Shown here: positions 4,001-39,995 of the stretch, piece after piece
Position numbering within the stretch: the first letter of the stretch is position 1
How the letters are laid out: every line of letters starts with the position of its first letter
Virus genome (UHGV): UHGV-0113213
Source of the DNA: a virus
Length of the DNA stretch: 52,407 nt
Strand: one strand, 5' to 3'
Made by a program: the position numbers and the translations under genes
The notes under the pieces: generated by a model
Told to the model about the DNA's origin: nothing
What the model saw: the letters and a program-made list of their open reading frames with translations, nothing else
Database searches by the model: none

Positions 4001-5578
4001 ATCGCCATCAAGTAAACTGATGGTGTCGCCTGCTGCAATGTATTCTGAATCGACTTTATCGACCGTTATCACTTTCCCATTGTTCGCCACGATACGACCG
4101 CCTAAACGCGCGCCTGCGCGGTTATTGTCGAGGATCTCGATTATATCCCCTGGCGTAAAGTGAATCGCATCACGGGCCATTTTAAACGTGAATTTTGACG
4201 GCTCGCGTTTTGCTGTTTCTATCAGCCATTTACCAGCGCGGTGCGCTTGCCCGCGTGAAGTGCACCCGAACGCCTCCAACGTGGTTTCGTTATAACCATC
4301 ACGGGCGATTAGCTCATCATCTGCCACATACTCTTTTGATTGCTCCCAGCCGTTTTCCGGGTCAGTCCATGATACAATCACGGCGTTGTAGCATTCTGCT
4401 CGGGCGATACTTGAACGAGTGAACGCACCATCAACGACGTTTGCGTTTGTGATGGTGGCGATCGGGTCTTGTGGCGCATCAATCATCACGGTAAGGCGTT
4501 GTCCGTCCCATAACGCGATGCCTCGGAACATCCCGGCGATATTGTCCAGTAAATCGCGGGCGCTCATTTGCTCTGTAATGTAAGCATTAAGCGTCATGCG
4601 AGGCTCAAGGCCACCGTAACCATCATCAACCAACTGGTCGCAGTATCGGGAGAGCGTATATAATGCGCCGTCGTCAACGTCAATATAGCCAGCATGGCGG
4701 GCAAGACCGAAACGCTCGTTTTTAACCAGGTAACGGAAGATCCACGCGGGGTTATTGGTGTACGCCTTCTTGAAGCCGCCAAGCCACAAACCGGAATAAG
4801 TGCGCGTTTCCGGGCTATAGTTATCAGGAACGTCAACAATCAGCCCGCGCAGGTGATAAGTGCGGGTAGGTGTATCAGTGTACTGATCATGATCAATAAC
4901 CGCGCCAGCTACAGCTGTGTGGGGATATGACAAATTATCGTCGATTATTTCGCTGTAACTACTCCATCTCGTATCATTCTGCAATAGATCGCTTGTGCTA
5001 TCGGCCGTTACACGGCGAACGCGAATATCAAACGGCTTTTCATCTGGTGCATTGATAATATGCGCTTCAAGATATTCTCCTCTGATCTTGCCGGGGCCTA
5101 TAGTGACATCTTTAACAAGCGTCCACGTAGAAGAAGATGAAGGCTTGACATCAATCATCATCATAACCGATGTGTTATGTTGATTGCTTTGCTCGTCAGA
5201 TTGTACAAGTGAATCGACGCCGATATTCAGGCGAACGCGCGTAACGTTAGGATCTGATACAGTCCTGATTATTGGGGTATCGTGTTTCACCTGAGCGTTA
5301 ACAATAACGGTTGATTCAATGGCGTTAAAACCGTTAATAGGTGATTGATCTAACGTGCCGTTACGCCACGCCACGCTAACACCAGGGACACTTGTATTGC
5401 CGTTCGCGTCTGTAACAGGTGTATCATTAAGCATCACGCTATTTAATGGCGCTTTTGTATTTACAGGTCCATAAATCGGACCTTCAGAAATAATATCAAG
5501 TACACGATAAAATTGTTTATGGTATAGATTATCGTTAATTAAAGTCGGTGTTTTTGCTTTACCGCCGCCGCTACTCAT
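1001..5578 (-). CDS. J: host specificity / tip attachment protein J-like, with ~400 aa coiled-coil insertion
   Basis: N-terminus and central regions align with lambda gpJ (MSSGGGKAKTP..., LNDTPV, GCTSRGQAHRAGKWLI). 1525 aa versus 1132 aa in lambda. Confidence 0.85.
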   Translation of the reverse strand: MSSGGGKAKTPTLINDNLYHKQFYRVLDIISEGPIYGPVNTKAPLNSVMLNDTPVTDANGNTSVPGVSVAWRNGTLDQSPINGFNAIESTVIVNAQVKHDTPIIRTVSDPNVTRVRLNIGVDSLVQSDEQSNQHNTSVMMMIDVKPSSSSTWTLVKDVTIGPGKIRGEYLEAHIINAPDEKPFDIRVRRVTADSTSDLLQNDTRWSSYSEIIDDNLSYPHTAVAGAVIDHDQYTDTPTRTYHLRGLIVDVPDNYSPETRTYSGLWLGGFKKAYTNNPAWIFRYLVKNERFGLARHAGYIDVDDGALYTLSRYCDQLVDDGYGGLEPRMTLNAYITEQMSARDLLDNIAGMFRGIALWDGQRLTVMIDAPQDPIATITNANVVDGAFTRSSIARAECYNAVIVSWTDPENGWEQSKEYVADDELIARDGYNETTLEAFGCTSRGQAHRAGKWLIETAKREPSKFTFKMARDAIHFTPGDIIEILDNNRAGARLGGRIVANNGKVITVDKVDSEYIAAGDTISLLDGDGKFKKHQITGVNGNKITLAAAPAWIRNGTVFAVSTESAKPVLCRIISVAETENNSVYTIEAAQHDPNKQAVVDEGAIFEINNDTLNHFRVPSIENLKVVNIGSETVQCRATWETQTTTHRMTFEIRIYNTDGAVVKSYETTKYSYDFYGIDAGAYSLGVRGRNDTGMKGAESIVDLVIGAPASPIGVNWVPGVFQATVYPISKTTLTTDTAYEFYYAGKNQITDPAKITTSAQFTGRGYQWTFGGMNTGHTYYVYVRTRNAFGVSDFVEASGKPTENFDEISDYVTKDVMNSEQFKELVSDIKDLGDRTDIIESATADLKTATADLKTATDGLKADTDTLKKDTEDLYKKVEENADGIGKHEVRIDSLEVSNENVNNELAQTKASLQNASLALINNSLAQTNTRVTLTAQYKKGRNETKAQIDRIDNVIADEKKATAESLETITAEMNAMDSSTKGEIARVDKAIATETQARTEAISNVNASISSLENKTDASVSRLDKAISDETQARSDAITDVKADLTTLENSTNASVSRLDQAIADESSARAQAISGISAELGSVESDVDKNSDKIEQAKASLQNASIALINNSIAQSKMSTVIEAKYRKGQIKTKAEIARIDTAIADETQARAEAIASLEANINENISAKITDISTALATHEASSAEKFVQISASFDDVNSSITEWSQAMSTADEALSTKIDQLKVTVNGNTTAIETTSKALTDFKGNVDASYSIKIATDNNGMKYATGMSLGLTGSGTDVQSQCIFLVDRFVLMTAANGTYQTPFYVTNGAMYVREAFIKDGSIDNAKIGNVITSYNWNGSDQGWAIVKDGWATFNNVTVRGTVYANSGVFNGTVYATDGKFRGTVEATSFVGDVASMSVIPEATFPAQSGSGSRSVTKNYWDSSSSALSKTVYVMIPYNLAYYTYNQSGRINVTININGNSKTIDIERAASTPHKSDVAVHCVSGITSQHVSVTVTENYTNTSSAAIRRPGLVLVTRSSGSWS
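2080..2760. repeat. ~108-bp imperfect tandem repeats inside J (coiled-coil heptad units D(K/Q)AIxxExxAR...ASVSRLD)
   Basis: Five to six protein-level repeats visible in the translation, with corresponding DNA periodicity. Confidence 0.6.
3015..3056. repeat. perfect 21-bp tandem duplication inside J
   Basis: gctgttttaaggtcggcggtt occurs twice; encodes ATADLKT twice. Confidence 0.85.
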
Positions 5579-21473: not shown

Positions 21474-22988
21474 TTAAAATCCGCGCAGGCGCTTAGGTAA
21501 CATAAGGCCCATTGCCTGTGGCTGGCTTAATTCAGTGATACCCCACACCATAGCGTCGAGGCGGTCAGGTGATTTTTTAGCGGTAGCTGGCACGTATTCC
21601 ATCATTTGATTTTCCAGCGTGTACAGGCTGCCTGTGTGGGCCACCCTTCCTTGTGCATACAGTGCCGATATTGGCTCGGCGCGGGCGAATTTACCCTTGC
21701 TTGCGTGCACCTTAACAATGCGGCCTTTGAATCCGGCGTTACGTAGCGTGGCCTCTGCCATATCACCACCCTGGTTGGTTTCGATAACCATCGCGTCAGC
21801 TTCATGGATGTTGTAGGCGTTCATTGCTGCTTGCGCCCAGTCATTAGGTGACATGCGTCCTGAGTAGTCACCGTCTACTGAATACTGAGCATTCTTGCCA
21901 CCACCATAAGCGGAACAGGCTACAATCCCTGTTTCGTCTGACTCATCAGATGATGTTGTCGCCGGGTCGATGGCTATCACCGTGCGAATTTTCTCCTGCG
22001 TTATCTGCATCCTGTGCGCGGCGGTTATCATCGCTTCAGTCCACAATGCGCCCTCTTGATCGAACTTGCGCGGACACTGCATATATTGAGCTTCGAATGT
22101 TCGGCGATGTGATTTAAGAGTTGATTCATCTTTATCACTATGCTTATGCAACCATAGCCAGCCATCCGGCAGGTTGTGAGGAACAGGAATAGCAAATTTG
22201 TTTTCCGGGTACAGATCCCAATAGTCAAGACTGTTGTCGATCTTCACTGGCAGGCAAAGGTGATGCCATTTCTCACCACTACCGCCACGTAACAGGTAGC
22301 CGGATAAATCATCGTAGTGGATACGCTGCATGATGACGATCACTGGCGTTGTTTGCACAGCCAGGCGCGAAGAAAGCGTGTCGTTGTAATTGGTATTAAC
22401 CTGCTTTCGCACCACATCAGAATAAGCGTCAGCTGGTTTCAGGGGGTCATCAATAATCATTGCGCCGTTAAACCCAGGTTCCATGTACCCGGCGCGGAAC
22501 CCTGTCACCTGTCCAAGCGATGACGTCGCATACACGCCGCCACCCTGAGTGGTCCACCACAGGTTTTTCGCGTTCGAATCGTTGCGCATTTGCATAGGCC
22601 ACAATTCCTGATATTGCGGCATCGTGATTATGTTTCTTGTCTCTGAGGAATTAAGCAAGGCGAGTCCGTGTGAATACGATACATGCAGGAATCTGGTGCG
22701 GGGTTCTATTGCGAGGCAGCGGGCCATCATGTGAATTGTGGCAATCATTGTTTTGCCATAGCCCGGTGGGATGTTGATTATCAACCTGGTGATTTCACCA
22801 TTAATAACTCGTTGTAGCGTATCGGCAATTATTCTGTGATGACGCCCAACCAAAAAGTCCTTGCCAACCTGTTGCTTATAAAAGTAGGAACTAAAAAACA
22901 AAGGTGCTGATATGTCTTTGGGGGCACAACCTTTAACACACAACCCCCTTAGAACCTCTCTGTCAATCTTTGTCGTCGCAGTCTCCAT
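21474..22988 (-). CDS. terminase large subunit
   Basis: Walker A PPGYGKT, Walker B IIDDPLK, C-terminal nuclease region. Confidence 0.85.
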   Translation of the reverse strand: METATTKIDREVLRGLCVKGCAPKDISAPLFFSSYFYKQQVGKDFLVGRHHRIIADTLQRVINGEITRLIINIPPGYGKTMIATIHMMARCLAIEPRTRFLHVSYSHGLALLNSSETRNIITMPQYQELWPMQMRNDSNAKNLWWTTQGGGVYATSSLGQVTGFRAGYMEPGFNGAMIIDDPLKPADAYSDVVRKQVNTNYNDTLSSRLAVQTTPVIVIMQRIHYDDLSGYLLRGGSGEKWHHLCLPVKIDNSLDYWDLYPENKFAIPVPHNLPDGWLWLHKHSDKDESTLKSHRRTFEAQYMQCPRKFDQEGALWTEAMITAAHRMQITQEKIRTVIAIDPATTSSDESDETGIVACSAYGGGKNAQYSVDGDYSGRMSPNDWAQAAMNAYNIHEADAMVIETNQGGDMAEATLRNAGFKGRIVKVHASKGKFARAEPISALYAQGRVAHTGSLYTLENQMMEYVPATAKKSPDRLDAMVWGITELSQPQAMGLMLPKRLRGF

Positions 22989-23478
22989 GAGTATTGTACT
23001 CCTTATTCAGGTTATCGATTATCTCAAGGACAGTAGTCTGATTTACTTCTACCTGGACGGGCGCTTCTTCCCTGTTACCTACGATCTCCTGCGTGACGCG
23101 CTCACCATATTTACGCGGTTGCAGTTTTGCCAGTAACCATTTACGAGTTTCAATCATCAGTTGATGGCGGCGGCATTGGTCTTTATCGGTGTTCTCCGCT
23201 GCGTCTGCTATGTCGATAATCTCATCAGCCAATATCTCAAAACCGATCTCCTTCGCGCGCATGTACATGTCCGAGAACTCCGGCACGTCTCTGAACCATT
23301 TAAGGATTGTTGAACGCGCAGGCATATCAGGCATCTTCGAAATTTTGTTAATACTCTGACCGTCCGCCACCAGCTCACAGATTTCTAATGCCTTTTCTTC
23401 GGTATAACCATGCGGACGGCCCGTCTTTTTGGCTGCTGGCTTTTTATCGTCAGCATTTGCCTTTTTAGTGCGGGCCAT
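22963..23478 (-). CDS. terminase small subunit (Sf6 gp1-like)
   Basis: GRP.GYTEE.A.EIC..VADG.S.NK..K.P.MP..ST...W pattern matches Sf6-type TerS. Confidence 0.75.
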   Translation of the reverse strand: MARTKKANADDKKPAAKKTGRPHGYTEEKALEICELVADGQSINKISKMPDMPARSTILKWFRDVPEFSDMYMRAKEIGFEILADEIIDIADAAENTDKDQCRRHQLMIETRKWLLAKLQPRKYGERVTQEIVGNREEAPVQVEVNQTTVLEIIDNLNKEYNTHGDCDDKD

Positions 23479-23488
23479 AATTCACCTC

Positions 23489-23632
23489 TTAATCATCTTT
23501 ACCAAATCTTAATTTAAATTCATTCATCATCTTTTCTACTTCCTGTTCGGAAAGATAGATGGTTTCATTATTTTCTGCTGAATCAAGTGCCTTTCTTATT
23601 TCATCTGCTATTTTTAGTTCTTCATCGTTCAT
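23489..23632 (-). CDS. hypothetical acidic 47 aa protein
   Basis: RBS GAGGTGA; internal start MNDEEL. Confidence 0.4.
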   Translation of the reverse strand: MNDEELKIADEIRKALDSAENNETIYLSEQEVEKMMNEFKLRFGKDD

Positions 23633-23643
23633 ATCGTCACCTC

Positions 23644-23727
23644 TTAATATTTGTTGATGATATATACGCAAGCCACAAAACTTGCGCAATATGTTAATAC
23701 TTCCAACCAGTCGAATAGCTCTTTCAT
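23644..23727 (-). CDS. tiny TM peptide K (27 aa) MKELFDWLEVLTYCASFVACVYIINKY
   Basis: ATGA coupling with peptide J. Confidence 0.5.
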   Translation of the reverse strand: MKELFDWLEVLTYCASFVACVYIINKY

Positions 23728-23867
23728 TGTTGCCCCTTGAATATATGCTTCGCTTCTCTGTAAATTAGCGCACCAGTCATTACAATCGCGTATACGCATA
23801 ACATTAACGCGACGATAAGCACGCCAGAACAAAGCAAAAACATCAGTAGATCGATAAATTCAAACAT
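23724..23867 (-). CDS. tiny TM peptide J (47 aa) MFEFIDLLMFLLCSGVLIVALMLCVYAIVMTGALIYREAKHIFKGQQ
   Basis: RBS GGTGAGAAATATT. Confidence 0.55.
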   Translation of the reverse strand: MFEFIDLLMFLLCSGVLIVALMLCVYAIVMTGALIYREAKHIFKGQQ

Positions 23868-23875
23868 AATATTTC

Positions 23876-23944
23876 TCACCAGGAGAAAACAATAACAACC
23901 AACAGTGCGCTTATAGCTATAATTAAGAAATCACTATCAGACAT
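23876..23944 (-). CDS. tiny TM peptide I (22 aa) MSDSDFLIIAISALLVVIVFSW
   Basis: ATGTCTGA overlap with peptide H. Confidence 0.5.
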   Translation of the reverse strand: MSDSDFLIIAISALLVVIVFSW

Positions 23945-24011
23945 TGATAATTACCAAGATAATAAATAACGCAACTGTACACACGATCAACATAATATCA
24001 ATAGCGTTCAT
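23937..24011 (-). CDS. tiny TM peptide H (24 aa) MNAIDIMLIVCTVALFIILVIINV
   Basis: RBS GGTGAGCGA. Confidence 0.55.
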   Translation of the reverse strand: MNAIDIMLIVCTVALFIILVIINV

Positions 24012-24019
24012 TCGCTCAC

Positions 24020-24088
24020 CTACTGAGTCAGTGCTGTCATGGTAAGAACAATCGCGACAATCAGGAAAAAGAAATCAAGCCATTTCAT
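24020..24088 (-). CDS. tiny TM peptide G (22 aa) MKWLDFFFLIVAIVLTMTALTQ
   Basis: RBS GGAGTTAAA. Confidence 0.55.
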   Translation of the reverse strand: MKWLDFFFLIVAIVLTMTALTQ

Positions 24089-24103
24089 TTTAACTCCTGA
24101 GAT

Positions 24104-24175
24104 TCAGTTAACACTTAAAAGCACCGCAACGATGACAATCACTATAATCATGCAAAAGAAGTCTGCTTCTCTCAT
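24104..24175 (-). CDS. tiny TM peptide F (23 aa) MREADFFCMIIVIVIVAVLLSVN
   Basis: ATGA overlap with peptide E. Confidence 0.5.
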   Translation of the reverse strand: MREADFFCMIIVIVIVAVLLSVN

Positions 24176-24252
24176 CTTTTTAGCCCTCGATAAAAATCAA
24201 CAGCAATGACTACAACTACAGCCACCAGCAATAGCATTTCGTATGCGTTCAT
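24172..24252 (-). CDS. tiny TM peptide E (26 aa) MNAYEMLLLVAVVVVIAVDFYRGLKR
   Basis: ATGA overlap with peptide D. Confidence 0.5.
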   Translation of the reverse strand: MNAYEMLLLVAVVVVIAVDFYRGLKR

Positions 24253-24347
24253 TTGATGCTACCCATAACAAGGCCGATGATAATAATTATGGCGACAATG
24301 CCTAACATCATTCCGAACATAATCGCCATCAGTTCGAATATATCCAT
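24249..24347 (-). CDS. tiny TM peptide D (32 aa) MDIFELMAIMFGMMLGIVAIIIIIGLVMGSIK
   Basis: Follows peptide C closely. Confidence 0.5.
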   Translation of the reverse strand: MDIFELMAIMFGMMLGIVAIIIIIGLVMGSIK

Positions 24348-24350
24348 GCT

Positions 24351-24425
24351 TCAGCTTTCAATGAATATCATGATCGCCAGCCATACGGCGACGCATAAGG
24401 AAAGGATGATTAGCGGGTCAATCAT
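24351..24425 (-). CDS. tiny TM peptide C (24 aa) MIDPLIILSLCVAVWLAIMIFIES
   Basis: RBS GGGGTGAAAAT. Confidence 0.55.
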   Translation of the reverse strand: MIDPLIILSLCVAVWLAIMIFIES

Positions 24426-24429
24426 ATTT

Positions 24430-24534
24430 TCACCCCACCAAATACTTGATATATACGTTTATCAGCGCAACTATAATAGAACCAGCAAGAAACACAGAAA
24501 CGCCGATTAATACGGCAATGATGTAAGCGGCCAT
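24430..24534 (-). CDS. tiny TM peptide B (34 aa) MAAYIIAVLIGVSVFLAGSIIVALINVYIKYLVG
   Basis: TAATGA coupling; an alternative start lies 7 nt upstream. Confidence 0.5.
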   Translation of the reverse strand: MAAYIIAVLIGVSVFLAGSIIVALINVYIKYLVG

Positions 24535-24539
24535 AATCA

Positions 24540-24602
24540 TTACTTCCACAACAAAAACAATATTACAGCCGCCGCCATTCCGATAAATAAATAAGCGTCC
24601 AT
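24540..24602 (-). CDS. tiny TM peptide A (20 aa) MDAYLFIGMAAAVILFLLWK
   Basis: RBS GAGG; TGATTATG coupling to the upstream HExxH gene. Confidence 0.55.
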   Translation of the reverse strand: MDAYLFIGMAAAVILFLLWK

Positions 24603-24604
24603 AA

Positions 24605-25189
24605 TCAGCCTCGTTTAAAGCTCATTACACGCGGTACAAGCGCCTCTTTTGCTTTAGGCTTACGTTTGCCTTTCTTGGCTGGTTTTTTCTCTTCTTTCGG
24701 CTCCTCTGCCTGCTCTACTGCCTGTTCTGCTGCATCAGTCGCCTTTTCCGCCTGCTCCAATGCCTGCTCAACGACTTCAGCGGCCTGCATAGCTGCCAAC
24801 TGTGCTTCGTTAGATTCAGCCAGGATCGGGAAGAATGCATCAAAGATGCGGCCCACCATGTAAGCATATGTCTCGTTTGCCGGATGGCTTGGTTCTGTAG
24901 TCGCTACGACACCGACATCACTTAAAACGTGGAATGTAGTGTGAGCCGCTTCATGTACCAGCGTACCAAGCTCATTATCGAATACTGCGATCACGTAGAA
25001 GTTACCGCCTTTCTCGCCAGTGCAAGTAAGTGTTAAACCTCCTGCCAGTTCAAAATCAGGTTCGATTGGGATCCCTGCCTTTTCGCAAAATTCATAGAAC
25101 ATGTCACGAGTCGGGCAGAAGAAAACTGTTGTATGCTCGAAGAGCGGGACTTTGAATTGAGGCAACTTAATGCCTTTACCCTTAGCCAT
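24605..25189 (-). CDS. putative zinc metallopeptidase-like protein (HEAAHTTFH = HExxHxxxH), acidic linker, Lys-rich tail
   Basis: ImmA/IrrE-type HExxHxxxH signature. C-terminus KKPAKKGKRKPKAKE. Confidence 0.45.
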   Translation of the reverse strand: MAKGKGIKLPQFKVPLFEHTTVFFCPTRDMFYEFCEKAGIPIEPDFELAGGLTLTCTGEKGGNFYVIAVFDNELGTLVHEAAHTTFHVLSDVGVVATTEPSHPANETYAYMVGRIFDAFFPILAESNEAQLAAMQAAEVVEQALEQAEKATDAAEQAVEQAEEPKEEKKPAKKGKRKPKAKEALVPRVMSFKRG

Positions 25190-25526
25190 CAGAATATTCC
25201 TCTATCCTGAAAAATATAACCCCCGCAAAACTGGACACCGCAGGGAGTGAAAACAGATATAAAACACTGAAAACGGCGCTTAGTGAGTACCGTTTGCAGA
25301 ATTTTATAAAACTGGACCTGCTTAACATCTCTGATAAACAGATCCGGGCGCTCGTCCTACGCGTGGCAGGTGAGTAAATGGCGCTTTCTTCTACCCAGGT
25401 AGCGCCGTACCTGTTAATGAGGTTGTTTACCCGGTATTACGTGTTTTTGAATTTCCGCCGTCGCTCGCGGGAAGGATTGACCCGGTTATGGCTGGCTGGC
25501 AGAAACGGCGACACGTCCACGAGCTG

Positions 25527-39490: not shown

Positions 39491-39753
39491 ACGCCGTACA
39501 TCCCATTCAGCCCGGCAAACAATTTCCGCCAGTGGTCTTCAACATAATCCCGGAACGGCTTAACGCGAACATTGCGGGCCTTCAGTTCAATCTTGTCAAA
39601 GAAACGAGGCTCAATAATCGTTCCATCCAGATATTTAACCAGGATCGGGCGCTCAAGATCGTTATATGTCTTGTTCAGCACAACCAGACCAGGGTCGCTA
39701 CGATATTCTGGCAAAACAACAAGATCGCCATCTTTTGCATTCCAAGTAACCAT
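39481..39753 (-). CDS. hypothetical protein
   Basis: ORF. Confidence 0.35.
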   Translation of the reverse strand: MVTWNAKDGDLVVLPEYRSDPGLVVLNKTYNDLERPILVKYLDGTIIEPRFFDKIELKARNVRVKPFRDYVEDHWRKLFAGLNGMYGVWL

Positions 39754-39872
39754 CACATCGCCCCTTTACAAATAAAGCTAATCACCGCAGCAAGTGCGCC
39801 GCAAAACACAATCGTAAACAGGAAACAAATAACGCAAAAAGCGACCCTTACAATATTCTTGCAAACCTTCAT
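39753..39872 (-). CDS. 39 aa hydrophobic peptide MKVCKNIVRVAFCVICFLFTIVFCGALAAVISFICKGAM
   Basis: RBS GGGGTGAG; fills an otherwise ORF-free gap. Confidence 0.45.
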   Translation of the reverse strand: MKVCKNIVRVAFCVICFLFTIVFCGALAAVISFICKGAM

Positions 39873-39875
39873 AAC

Positions 39876-39995
39876 TCACCCCAACAATGCAACAATTAAT
39901 TCAGCAATAAAAACGGCGACATAAAAAGAAGCTGTGATATAAATCACCCCAATAACGAAGGCGGCGGCTAATGCCGCAATTTTTACCATGCTCAT
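39876..39995 (-). CDS. 39 aa hydrophobic peptide MSMVKIAALAAAFVIGVIYITASFYVAVFIAELIVALLG
   Basis: RBS GGAGGCTGATAA. Confidence 0.45.
   Translation of the reverse strand: MSMVKIAALAAAFVIGVIYITASFYVAVFIAELIVALLG

Follow-up and report, generated by a model that had tools for sequence, protein, structure and literature searches.

The viral genome UHGV-0113213 (52,407 nucleotides (nt), below called the window) carries an array of very small genes, each coding for a peptide with a single hydrophobic helix, between its lysis genes and its terminase genes. Read along the minus strand from 25189 to 22963, the order is a gene for a protein of 194 amino acids (aa), 11 mini-genes, an open reading frame (ORF) for a 47-aa acidic protein, and TerS, with TerL beyond. 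Genes for lysozyme (PF00959) and the Rz spanin (PF03245) border this module on its 5' side, the lysis set of the phage (holin, lysozyme, Rz) is complete, and the array has the same orientation as the lysozyme/Rz and TerS/TerL genes that enclose it. The region of the array is matched in seven phages, mEp021, mEp010, mEp013, mEp044, mEp515, mEp554 and MagusPhagus, and in 35 of 5426 complete Escherichia coli genomes.

The phage is a temperate coliphage of the mEpimmI group; according to its description in 2025 this group is Nus-dependent and often found in human faeces (PMC11893012). In the human-faecal collection of the describers these phages were reported to be as frequent as lambdoid phages (PMC11893012). 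The initial annotation of the window, made from the DNA letters, had called the phage lambdoid; this label has to be given up, as the describers class the group as non-lambdoid (PMC11893012).

A chain of selected micro-genes

Between 24602 and 23644 on the minus strand all of the 11 consecutive mini-genes postulated in the initial annotation could be located. All start with ATG, are 20-47 aa long and encode a single hydrophobic helix, and together they span 96% of a stretch of 961 bp in which T occupies 58% of the second codon positions (Table 1). The accompanying statement that this strand holds no ORF of at least 60 aa needs a correction: there is a TTG-started ORF of 62 aa (23644-23832), an upstream extension of the frame of mini-gene 11. 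The junctions among the small ORFs range from -8 to +15 nt, and three of them are ATGA overlaps. Mini-gene 2 has two in-frame ATGs, at 24540 and 24534.

A transmembrane (TM)-like ORF was defined as an ATG-started ORF with a minimum of 20 aa in which a window of 15 residues is hydrophobic. The random-sequence control which had been proposed does not reproduce the chain of 11: 1000 dinucleotide-preserving shuffles of the stretch gave on average 1.1 such ORFs (maximum 5), with a mean coverage of 14% (maximum 69%). The antisense strand of the stretch has no TM-like ATG-ORF, and in the rest of the 52-kb window these ORFs are scattered, with one other adjacent group at 39675-39995.

The reading frames bear the marks of selection. 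Within families of homologous peptides the pooled ratio of nonsynonymous to synonymous polymorphism (pN/pS) is 0.23, ranging from 0.08 to 0.37 per family, against 0.99 and 1.35 in the shifted frames; among the antisense frames only the one which mirrors the coding frame is low (0.32), as expected. Orthologues were also redefined by blastn alone to avoid circularity, and the substitutions at codon positions 1, 2 and 3 were then 389, 316 and 1061 (60% at position 3), with gaps in only 2 of about 205 variants. The frames, starts and stops are kept in the 48 arrays available for comparison, as had been predicted for genuine genes. A Shine-Dalgarno (SD)-like motif, scored 4-16 nt upstream of the start, stands before 83% of 439 mini-genes and before 18% of 823 other ATGs in the same DNA, and for 93% of the mini-genes there is either this motif or a start placed -10 to +4 nt from the preceding stop. 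The overall GC content of the array is low (0.38); at third codon positions it is 0.47, equal to that of the neighbours (0.47-0.53), so the low value reflects hydrophobic codons and not a foreign origin. The array thus consists of real, selected, polycistronic micro-genes, and the translational coupling of single-TM peptide genes which the initial annotation described is upheld by the overlaps, the SD motifs and the selection.

The opposite view is that there are no genes here, and that the ORFs arose by chance in T-rich DNA, are the remains of a decayed gene for a multi-pass membrane protein, or code for killer peptides like type I toxins that are paired with antisense RNAs. The region is indeed T-rich (37% T), the peptides resemble the Ibs- and Ldr-type toxins in size and hydrophobicity, and most of them are too short for gene finders; the six shortest, when looked up, were missing from a collection of 15 billion protein sequences, which means that they were never called as genes. 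Neither the failure of the shuffles to give the chain, nor the frame-specific purifying selection with its conserved starts and stops, nor the SD motifs enriched at the true starts agrees with this view. Moreover, a decayed multi-pass gene is made less likely by the lack of any Pfam match for the concatenated peptides, and the array has no Rfam match, no internal promoter enrichment and no DNA repeats. We regard this explanation as very improbable. An identity with the type I toxin-antitoxin systems Hok, Ibs, Ldr or TisB was considered separately and rejected, because promoter enrichment and Rfam matches are lacking and the genes are chained by overlaps and SD sites.

Table 1. Features of the array and of its surroundings in the window; arrays are counted among 48 distinct versions.
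Feature	Position	Strand	Sequence	Upstream signal or junction	Arrays	pN/pS	Basis or remark
Conserved non-coding region between Rz and the 194-aa gene, 338 bp	25190..25526	-					Alignment of 7 relatives
194-aa protein, N-terminal zincin-like domain of ~130 aa	24605..25189	-					phrog_1365 match
Mini-gene 1 (F18), 20 aa	24540..24602	-	MDAYLFIGMAAAVILFLLWK	GAGG	6/48		
Mini-gene 2 (F04), 34 aa	24430..24534	-	MAAYIIAVLIGVSVFLAGSIIVALINVYIKYLVG		41/48	0.25	
Mini-gene 3 (F02), 24 aa	24351..24425	-	MIDPLIILSLCVAVWLAIMIFIES	GGTGGGGTG	44/48	0.30	
Mini-gene 4 (F08), 32 aa	24249..24347	-	MDIFELMAIMFGMMLGIVAIIIIIGLVMGSIK		24/48	0.12	
Mini-gene 5 (F03), 26 aa	24172..24252	-	MNAYEMLLLVAVVVVIAVDFYRGLKR	ATGA overlap with gene 4	47/48	0.24	Count includes fused-ORF variants
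Mini-gene 6 (F10), 23 aa	24104..24175	-	MREADFFCMIIVIVIVAVLLSVN	ATGA overlap with gene 5	18/48	0.24	
Mini-gene 7 (F01), 22 aa	24020..24088	-	MKWLDFFFLIVAIVLTMTALTQ	AGGAG	44/48	0.13	
Mini-gene 8 (F05), 24 aa	23937..24011	-	MNAIDIMLIVCTVALFIILVIINV	GGTGAG	33/48	0.37	
Mini-gene 9 (F07), 22 aa	23876..23944	-	MSDSDFLIIAISALLVVIVFSW	8-nt overlap with gene 8	30/48	0.30	
Mini-gene 10 (F13), 47 aa	23724..23867	-	MFEFIDLLMFLLCSGVLIVALMLCVYAIVMTGALIYREAKHIFKGQQ		12/48	0.27	
Mini-gene 11 (F00), 27 aa	23644..23727	-	MKELFDWLEVLTYCASFVACVYIINKY	ATGA overlap with gene 10	45/48	0.08	
Twelfth small gene (F19), 47 aa, acidic, soluble	23489..23632	-	MNDEELKIADEIRK...	GAGGTG	6/48		
TerS, Sf6 type, downstream boundary of the array	22963..23478	-					PF20901, E 1.5e-37
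85-aa ORF, antisense shadow, no gene	24253..24510	+					Intact only in the near-identical L008

The peptides have a hydrophobic core of 15-30 residues, and all 11 of the window contain a 15-residue window with a mean Kyte-Doolittle hydropathy of at least 2.0. A typical peptide has a short acidic N-tail, one helix, and a C-tail which is usually neutral or basic. Summed over the representatives of 23 families the net charge is -23 in the N-flanks and +12 in the C-flanks, and 10 of the 23 families have D or E at residue 5; hydropathy and flank charges therefore bear out the acidic N-terminus and the single helix noted at first reading. The positive-inside rule, together with the analogy to the Pf3 coat protein, whose insertion is aided by the membrane potential and YidC, suggests that the peptides are single-pass inner-membrane micro-proteins, predicted to lie N-out/C-in and to insert without a signal peptide.

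A few members deserve a comment. The sequence of mini-gene 2 is already called a hypothetical protein in some records. The product of mini-gene 10 has a long hydrophobic stretch and a basic C-tail; a search among 5.8e9 sequences gave only 11 sequence clusters for its family, and each name given was that of an E. coli hypothetical protein. Mini-gene 11 codes for the last membrane peptide of the array and is the best conserved; the three arrays without its family F00 have the allelic F21. The twelfth small gene, F19, is an optional tail cassette between the array and TerS, with its stop 10 nt before the TerS start in the window. In those of the arrays read which lack F19, 10-11 nt separate the F00 stop from the TerS start. 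An identical TAAGAGGTGA junction is found on either side of F19, as if this gene had been inserted by recombination there. On 81 contigs it is annotated as a hypothetical protein, and its match to phrog_7284 is weak (E 0.009).

The plus-strand ORF of 85 aa had been taken as an antisense shadow of the mini-genes. This is correct; 3-9 stops interrupt it in the four other, divergent arrays which cover it.

Outside the array, the group at 39675-39995 on the minus strand consists of two adjoining 39-aa ORFs, each having a strongly hydrophobic stretch (MSMVKIAALAAAFVIGVIYITASF... and MKVCKNIVRVAFCVICFLFTIVFCG...), followed by a 21-aa ORF. It may represent another, smaller group of membrane micro-genes, located in the early region.

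Array content among related phages

The comparison is based on 55 loci, 47 of them from IMG/VR, in which the interval from the 194-aa gene to TerS occurs in 48 distinct versions. This interval is 318-1154 bp long; in each version small plus-sense ORFs take up about 90% of the length, and 2-12 of these ORFs are TM-like. Clustering of the peptides gave about 23 hydrophobic families in addition to overlapping, non-hydrophobic, out-of-frame ORFs. The families follow the order [F09/F15/F20/F18/F27/F28]-F04-[F22/F17]-F02-F06-[F33]-F08-F03-F10-F01-F05-F07-F12-F13-F00 (or F21)-[F19, soluble], and no pair of membrane-peptide families was found in both orders in the 48 arrays. The lone apparent exception concerns the soluble F19 and comes from a fused-ORF call.

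The content of the arrays is very different from phage to phage. The 48 arrays show 43 patterns of gene content and have 3-13 genes each (median 10), so the expectation of an array which is conserved and varies in copy number holds. Five families (F03, F00, F01, F02 and F04) are near-universal (41-47 of the 48 arrays), and the others occur in 2-33. The non-universal families come and go cleanly at gene boundaries, and the first and last slots are occupied by alternative families; F18, the family of mini-gene 1, is one of six found at the head. The junction with the 194-aa gene is the same whichever family stands first, and the DNA 5' of F06 in one phage is the DNA 5' of F03 in a phage that has neither F06 nor F08. 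From this shared junction DNA we infer that gain and loss take place at or just past the start codons.

The initial annotation saw in the shared N-terminal pattern a tandemly duplicated paralogue family, and this is true in part. Several families are paralogues or alleles of each other (F00/F21, F03/F17, F06/F26, F09/F20 and F01/F10/F12). On the other hand there are no DNA tandem repeats in the array, and against segment-preserving shuffles z exceeds 4 in only 11 of the 253 family pairs; for most pairs no relationship can be detected.

In more divergent phages, where the 194-aa protein is 65-78% identical, the arrays have 7, 2 and about 7 divergent genes. The nearest outgroup, L055, has a homologue of the 194-aa protein (56% identical) and no array, with 4 nt between that gene and TerS. 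Searches by blastn, and by tblastn with the concatenated peptides, of 50,697 phage records found nothing beyond the seven mEpimmI-type phages. A concatenate of the 23 family representatives also gave no match, a result which is uninformative, because hydrophobic words had probably saturated the list of candidates. The array is confined to the mEpimmI group and is an insertion at the lysis/packaging junction in one lineage.

Two observations on the relatives may be added. The locus L008 (IMG/VR IMGVR_UViG_2541047750_000003) has an identical 194-aa protein, the same array length and gene content as the window, and a TerS which is 99.4% identical. HNH endonuclease genes occur at differing points of the module, in L006 (mEp013) at 2127-2612, in L060 at 2252-2773 and in L061 at 4750-5253; one relative has the insertion directly behind the 194-aa gene, another in the lysozyme-Rz interval and a third in the TerS-TerL interval. 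This scatter suggests that mobile homing endonucleases are active in the module.

The zincin-like protein at the head of the array

The 194-aa protein belongs to phrog_1365 (E 1.6e-29, residues 3-130 on profile positions 5-123 of 127). An exhaustive profile search of 1.84e9 representatives yielded 218 relatives, which for the most part are stand-alone proteins about 120 aa long. The sequence HEAAHTTFH is at residues 79-87, with HExxH at 79-83. In an alignment of 49 diverse relatives, 23-65% identical to the window protein, the residues G51, H79, E80, H83, E106 and Y110 are invariant, and H87, the third histidine of HExxHxxxH, varies. The HExxH motif is in a predicted helix (74-91), and E106 is part of an N-E-T-[FY]-x-Y motif in the next one (103-129). 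An AlphaFold2 model of the domain, with a predicted local distance difference test score (pLDDT) of 93.4, has the order strand-helix-strand-strand followed by the two helices which carry HExxH and the Glu. An HExxH on a helix and an invariant Glu on the following one are the features of a gluzincin-type site. The zincin-like metallopeptidase (MPTase) domains of phage and plasmid polyvalent proteins are alike in having the HExxH helix and a Glu on the next helix, and the small beta-sheet and N-terminal helix ahead of these in the model may correspond to their core as well. In these domains the third metal ligand is the Glu on the following helix, and in the core the two active-site helices come after a three-stranded sheet that has an N-terminal helix (PMC5512222). 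One relative is labelled in its source as "PolyVal Metallopeptidase superfamily domain". SprT-like proteins are another likeness, with sub-threshold Pfam matches in 12 of the 49 relatives (best E 0.0091).

The window protein itself has no Pfam peptidase match above threshold. A profile search against the sequences of the PDB found no peptidase and only chance matches (an RNase A fusion and TraO), and a profile search of genome contigs with the protein alignment confirmed no locus. From motif and model the protein looks zincin-like with a putative conserved active site and is a candidate member of the zincins. The initial annotation had compared it with ImmA/IrrE on account of the HExxHxxxH signature. 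The conserved HExxH and the metallopeptidase-like character stand, while the third histidine is variable and Peptidase_M78 is not supported. ImmA/IrrE was rejected as an identity because PF06114 is matched by one of the 49 relatives (E 0.099) and not by the window protein, and as a pairing because the neighbours are lysis and terminase genes with no Xre- or CI-type repressor.

After the domain comes an Ala/Glu-rich helix of variable length and then a basic disordered tail. A 12/21-nt tandem repeat (24705-24766), the only tandem repeat found, encodes the Ala/Glu-rich helix (its coiled-coil part), and a 14-residue indel there gives proteins of 180 and 194 aa among the relatives. No TM segment or signal peptide was found in the protein.

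Mini-gene 1 starts 2 nt past the stop of this gene (GGCTGATTATG), so the coupling of the two is physically real. One hypothesis is an operon of a peptidase and its substrates, in which the 194-aa HExxH protein processes, activates, degrades or partners the peptides. The 2-nt junction, with the SD site of the first mini-gene inside the end of the gene in 5 of 5 arrays read, and the invariance of the active-site-like residues would be in line with this. However, the gene stands 4 nt from TerS without any array in the outgroup L055. We also looked at 80 viral loci from a sub-alignment search, with homologues 54-74% identical to a distant subfamily; in 75 of them there is no TM mini-ORF in the 1.2 kb downstream, four have one and one has two. 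In several of eight distant loci which were read the homologue is just 5' of the terminase genes or after a spanin-like lipoprotein, which points to a recurrent partnership with the lysis/packaging junction and not with the peptides. Furthermore, the protein has neither a TM segment nor a signal peptide and the N-tails of the peptides are predicted to be periplasmic, and peptides of 20-27 aa leave nothing for processing. A single functional unit of peptidase and peptides, as first proposed, is therefore not supported by the outgroup and the distant loci, and we find it quite unlikely. The protein is a member of a widespread, uncharacterised phage family and is worth a study of its own.

In two distant loci (L080, 2870-3508; L072, 3061-3693) the homologue is followed by a second, unrelated HExxH protein (EHELYHIA), and in L080 the next ORF is a candidate small terminase by its look (162 aa). 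Such distant phages would have a pair of adjacent putative metallopeptidases where the lysis and packaging genes meet.

The non-coding region upstream of the gene carries a TTTATAAAATTCTG box and no credible gene. It has two hairpins, each with a T-run (25271-25295 and 25220-25245), and a fold energy of -28.4 kcal/mol; in the annotation of mEp021 the second of them is a terminator, TERM_6. The first ~150 nt are near-identical even where the 194-aa protein is only 65-78% identical, and the window and mEp021 have an insertion of about 59 bp which the other relatives do not have. The region may be a cis-acting site, regulatory or for packaging.

Possible functions of the peptides

The array has no evident transcription signals. 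A consensus promoter scan gave 3 promoter-like sites where shuffles led us to expect 7.4, and a scan for terminators found no convincing one within the array. In the annotation of mEp021 a Q-type late regulator is located 2.7 kb upstream of the holin, and terminators are predicted before the holin and after Rz.

On balance we favour, with moderate confidence, a model in which the array is a lineage-specific cassette of the late operon, coding for accessory single-pass micro-proteins which act on membrane targets. Without a promoter and a terminator of its own the array, which lies downstream of the predicted Q, would be co-transcribed with the late operon, and its translation would depend on coupling or on its own SD sites. 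The peptides would insert N-out/C-in in the inner membrane in the way of the Pf3 coat protein, using the membrane potential and YidC, and each would bind a particular membrane protein helix-to-helix inside the bilayer. Candidate targets are host membrane proteins, those of the lysis machinery which the phage itself encodes, and those of competing phages. The set of peptides would be a variable accessory repertoire outside the core lytic machinery, and its action would be independent of the neighbouring peptidase-like protein. An accessory, target-specific role is favoured because the purifying selection is family-specific, the content differs in close relatives, and one relative has no array at all.

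Several points weigh against this model. Late expression from an antiterminated transcript in lytic growth is deduced from position only. The promoter scan is crude and may miss a weak or non-sigma-70 promoter which is active in lysogens. Conservation has no helical periodicity that would mark a binding face (1 of 13 families with p < 0.05), and searches of Pfam, PHROG, NCBIfam and PADLOC with the peptides and their concatenate gave nothing significant. The effect on the membrane may instead be collective and non-specific. Finally, the paper on the genomes and virion proteome of the group does not mention the array region (PMC11893012).

Among known systems the bacterial small membrane-protein regulators of 20-50 aa (AcrZ, MgtS, MgrB, PmrR, CydX and KdpF) come close. 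They act by binding larger membrane proteins in the bilayer, and the array peptides are like them in size, in the single TM helix, in the very short tails and in being often missed by annotation. They differ in that the regulators come from single chromosomal genes with known partners, whereas the array has up to 12 unrelated or weakly related peptides back to back in the late operon of a phage; no sequence similarity to these regulators was found. The coat proteins of Pf3 and M13 share the acidic N-tail, the single helix, the basic C-tail and the predicted N-out/C-in orientation. The array peptides are shorter (mostly 20-34 aa), nothing points to them as virion components, and they are not mentioned in the text of the paper on the mEpimmI phages.

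Phage proteins which work through one TM helix are known from the single-gene lysis proteins: phiX174 E inhibits MraY, and Sgl proteins of single-stranded RNA (ssRNA) phages inhibit MurJ. These are also phage-encoded and very small. Their phages lack a holin-endolysin system, whereas the phage of the window has a full holin/lysozyme/Rz cassette, so the array peptides are not needed for lysis. The peptides could still tune the triggering of the holin, either in an antiholin-like way or by lowering the membrane potential. Single TM helices, the predicted late expression and the position about 0.9 kb downstream of the holin-lysozyme-Rz cassette fit such lysis-timing modulators. Yet the 338-bp region with its terminator-like hairpins and the 194-aa gene separate the array from the lysis cassette, the number of mini-genes varies from 0 to 13 per phage under the same type of lysis cassette, and there are no matches to holin families; a sequence-specific purifying selection in each family is moreover unexpected for a bulk effect on the membrane. 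We see lysis timing as a plausible special case, on the whole on the unlikely side. The peptides were not accepted as holins or antiholins proper, none having a Pfam or PHROG holin match; a holin homologue lies upstream of the lysozyme gene, and the array is outside the lysis cassette.

A role in the prophage has also been considered, in which the peptides, expressed moron-like from the lysogen, cause conversion or superinfection exclusion by blocking DNA entry at the inner membrane. Temperate phages classically carry accessory genes in the interval between lysis and terminase genes, the exclusion proteins that are known are small and located in the inner membrane, and the content of the array is highly variable. 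But promoter- or terminator-like signals of its own do not rise above background, and the genes are in line and translationally coupled with essential late genes; with no promoter, expression from the prophage is less likely. In addition, the exclusion functions described for the group are a lipoprotein and a repressor, encoded elsewhere (PMC11893012). We therefore consider exclusion improbable. Morons such as lambda bor are similar in their lysis/packaging position, their variable content and their dispensability, which for the array is indicated by the related phage without it; unlike the array, which is chained into the late operon, they have their own promoter and terminator and are expressed in the prophage. 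The array was rejected as a moron in the sense of an autonomous unit because of the missing flanking signals. The small pleiotropic protein Ipe of mEp021 was likewise set aside; it is the product of a 77-aa early-region gene (mEp021_29) and unrelated to the array.

A more far-reaching form of the model of membrane-directed accessory peptides is that the array is a combinatorial repertoire of TM-helix binders which neutralise or hijack distinct membrane proteins of the host or of rival phages. This is a speculative idea to which we give little weight. The targets would be, for example, a membrane-anchored defence, a DNA-entry channel or a cell-envelope enzyme, and recombination at the conserved start-codon junctions would reshuffle the repertoire from phage to phage. 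If true, it would be a membrane-phase counterpart of the anti-defence islands, overlooked since most of its members are shorter than 30 aa.

Phages often encode small membrane proteins, and it is well known that accessory genes can lie between lysis and terminase genes. A literature search found no description of this array, nor of a comparably dense and ordered array of TM genes below 35 aa. The 2-12 genes which each mEpimmI genome has in this region are mostly missing from annotations, as gene callers with cut-offs of 30 aa leave "empty" regions in the late operons of phages. The array is a statistically solid case of very small genes under selection. With 0-13 genes in 43 combinations it is also a natural experiment, and the role of the peptides can be tested in mEp021 and its relatives, which infect K-12 and are tractable.

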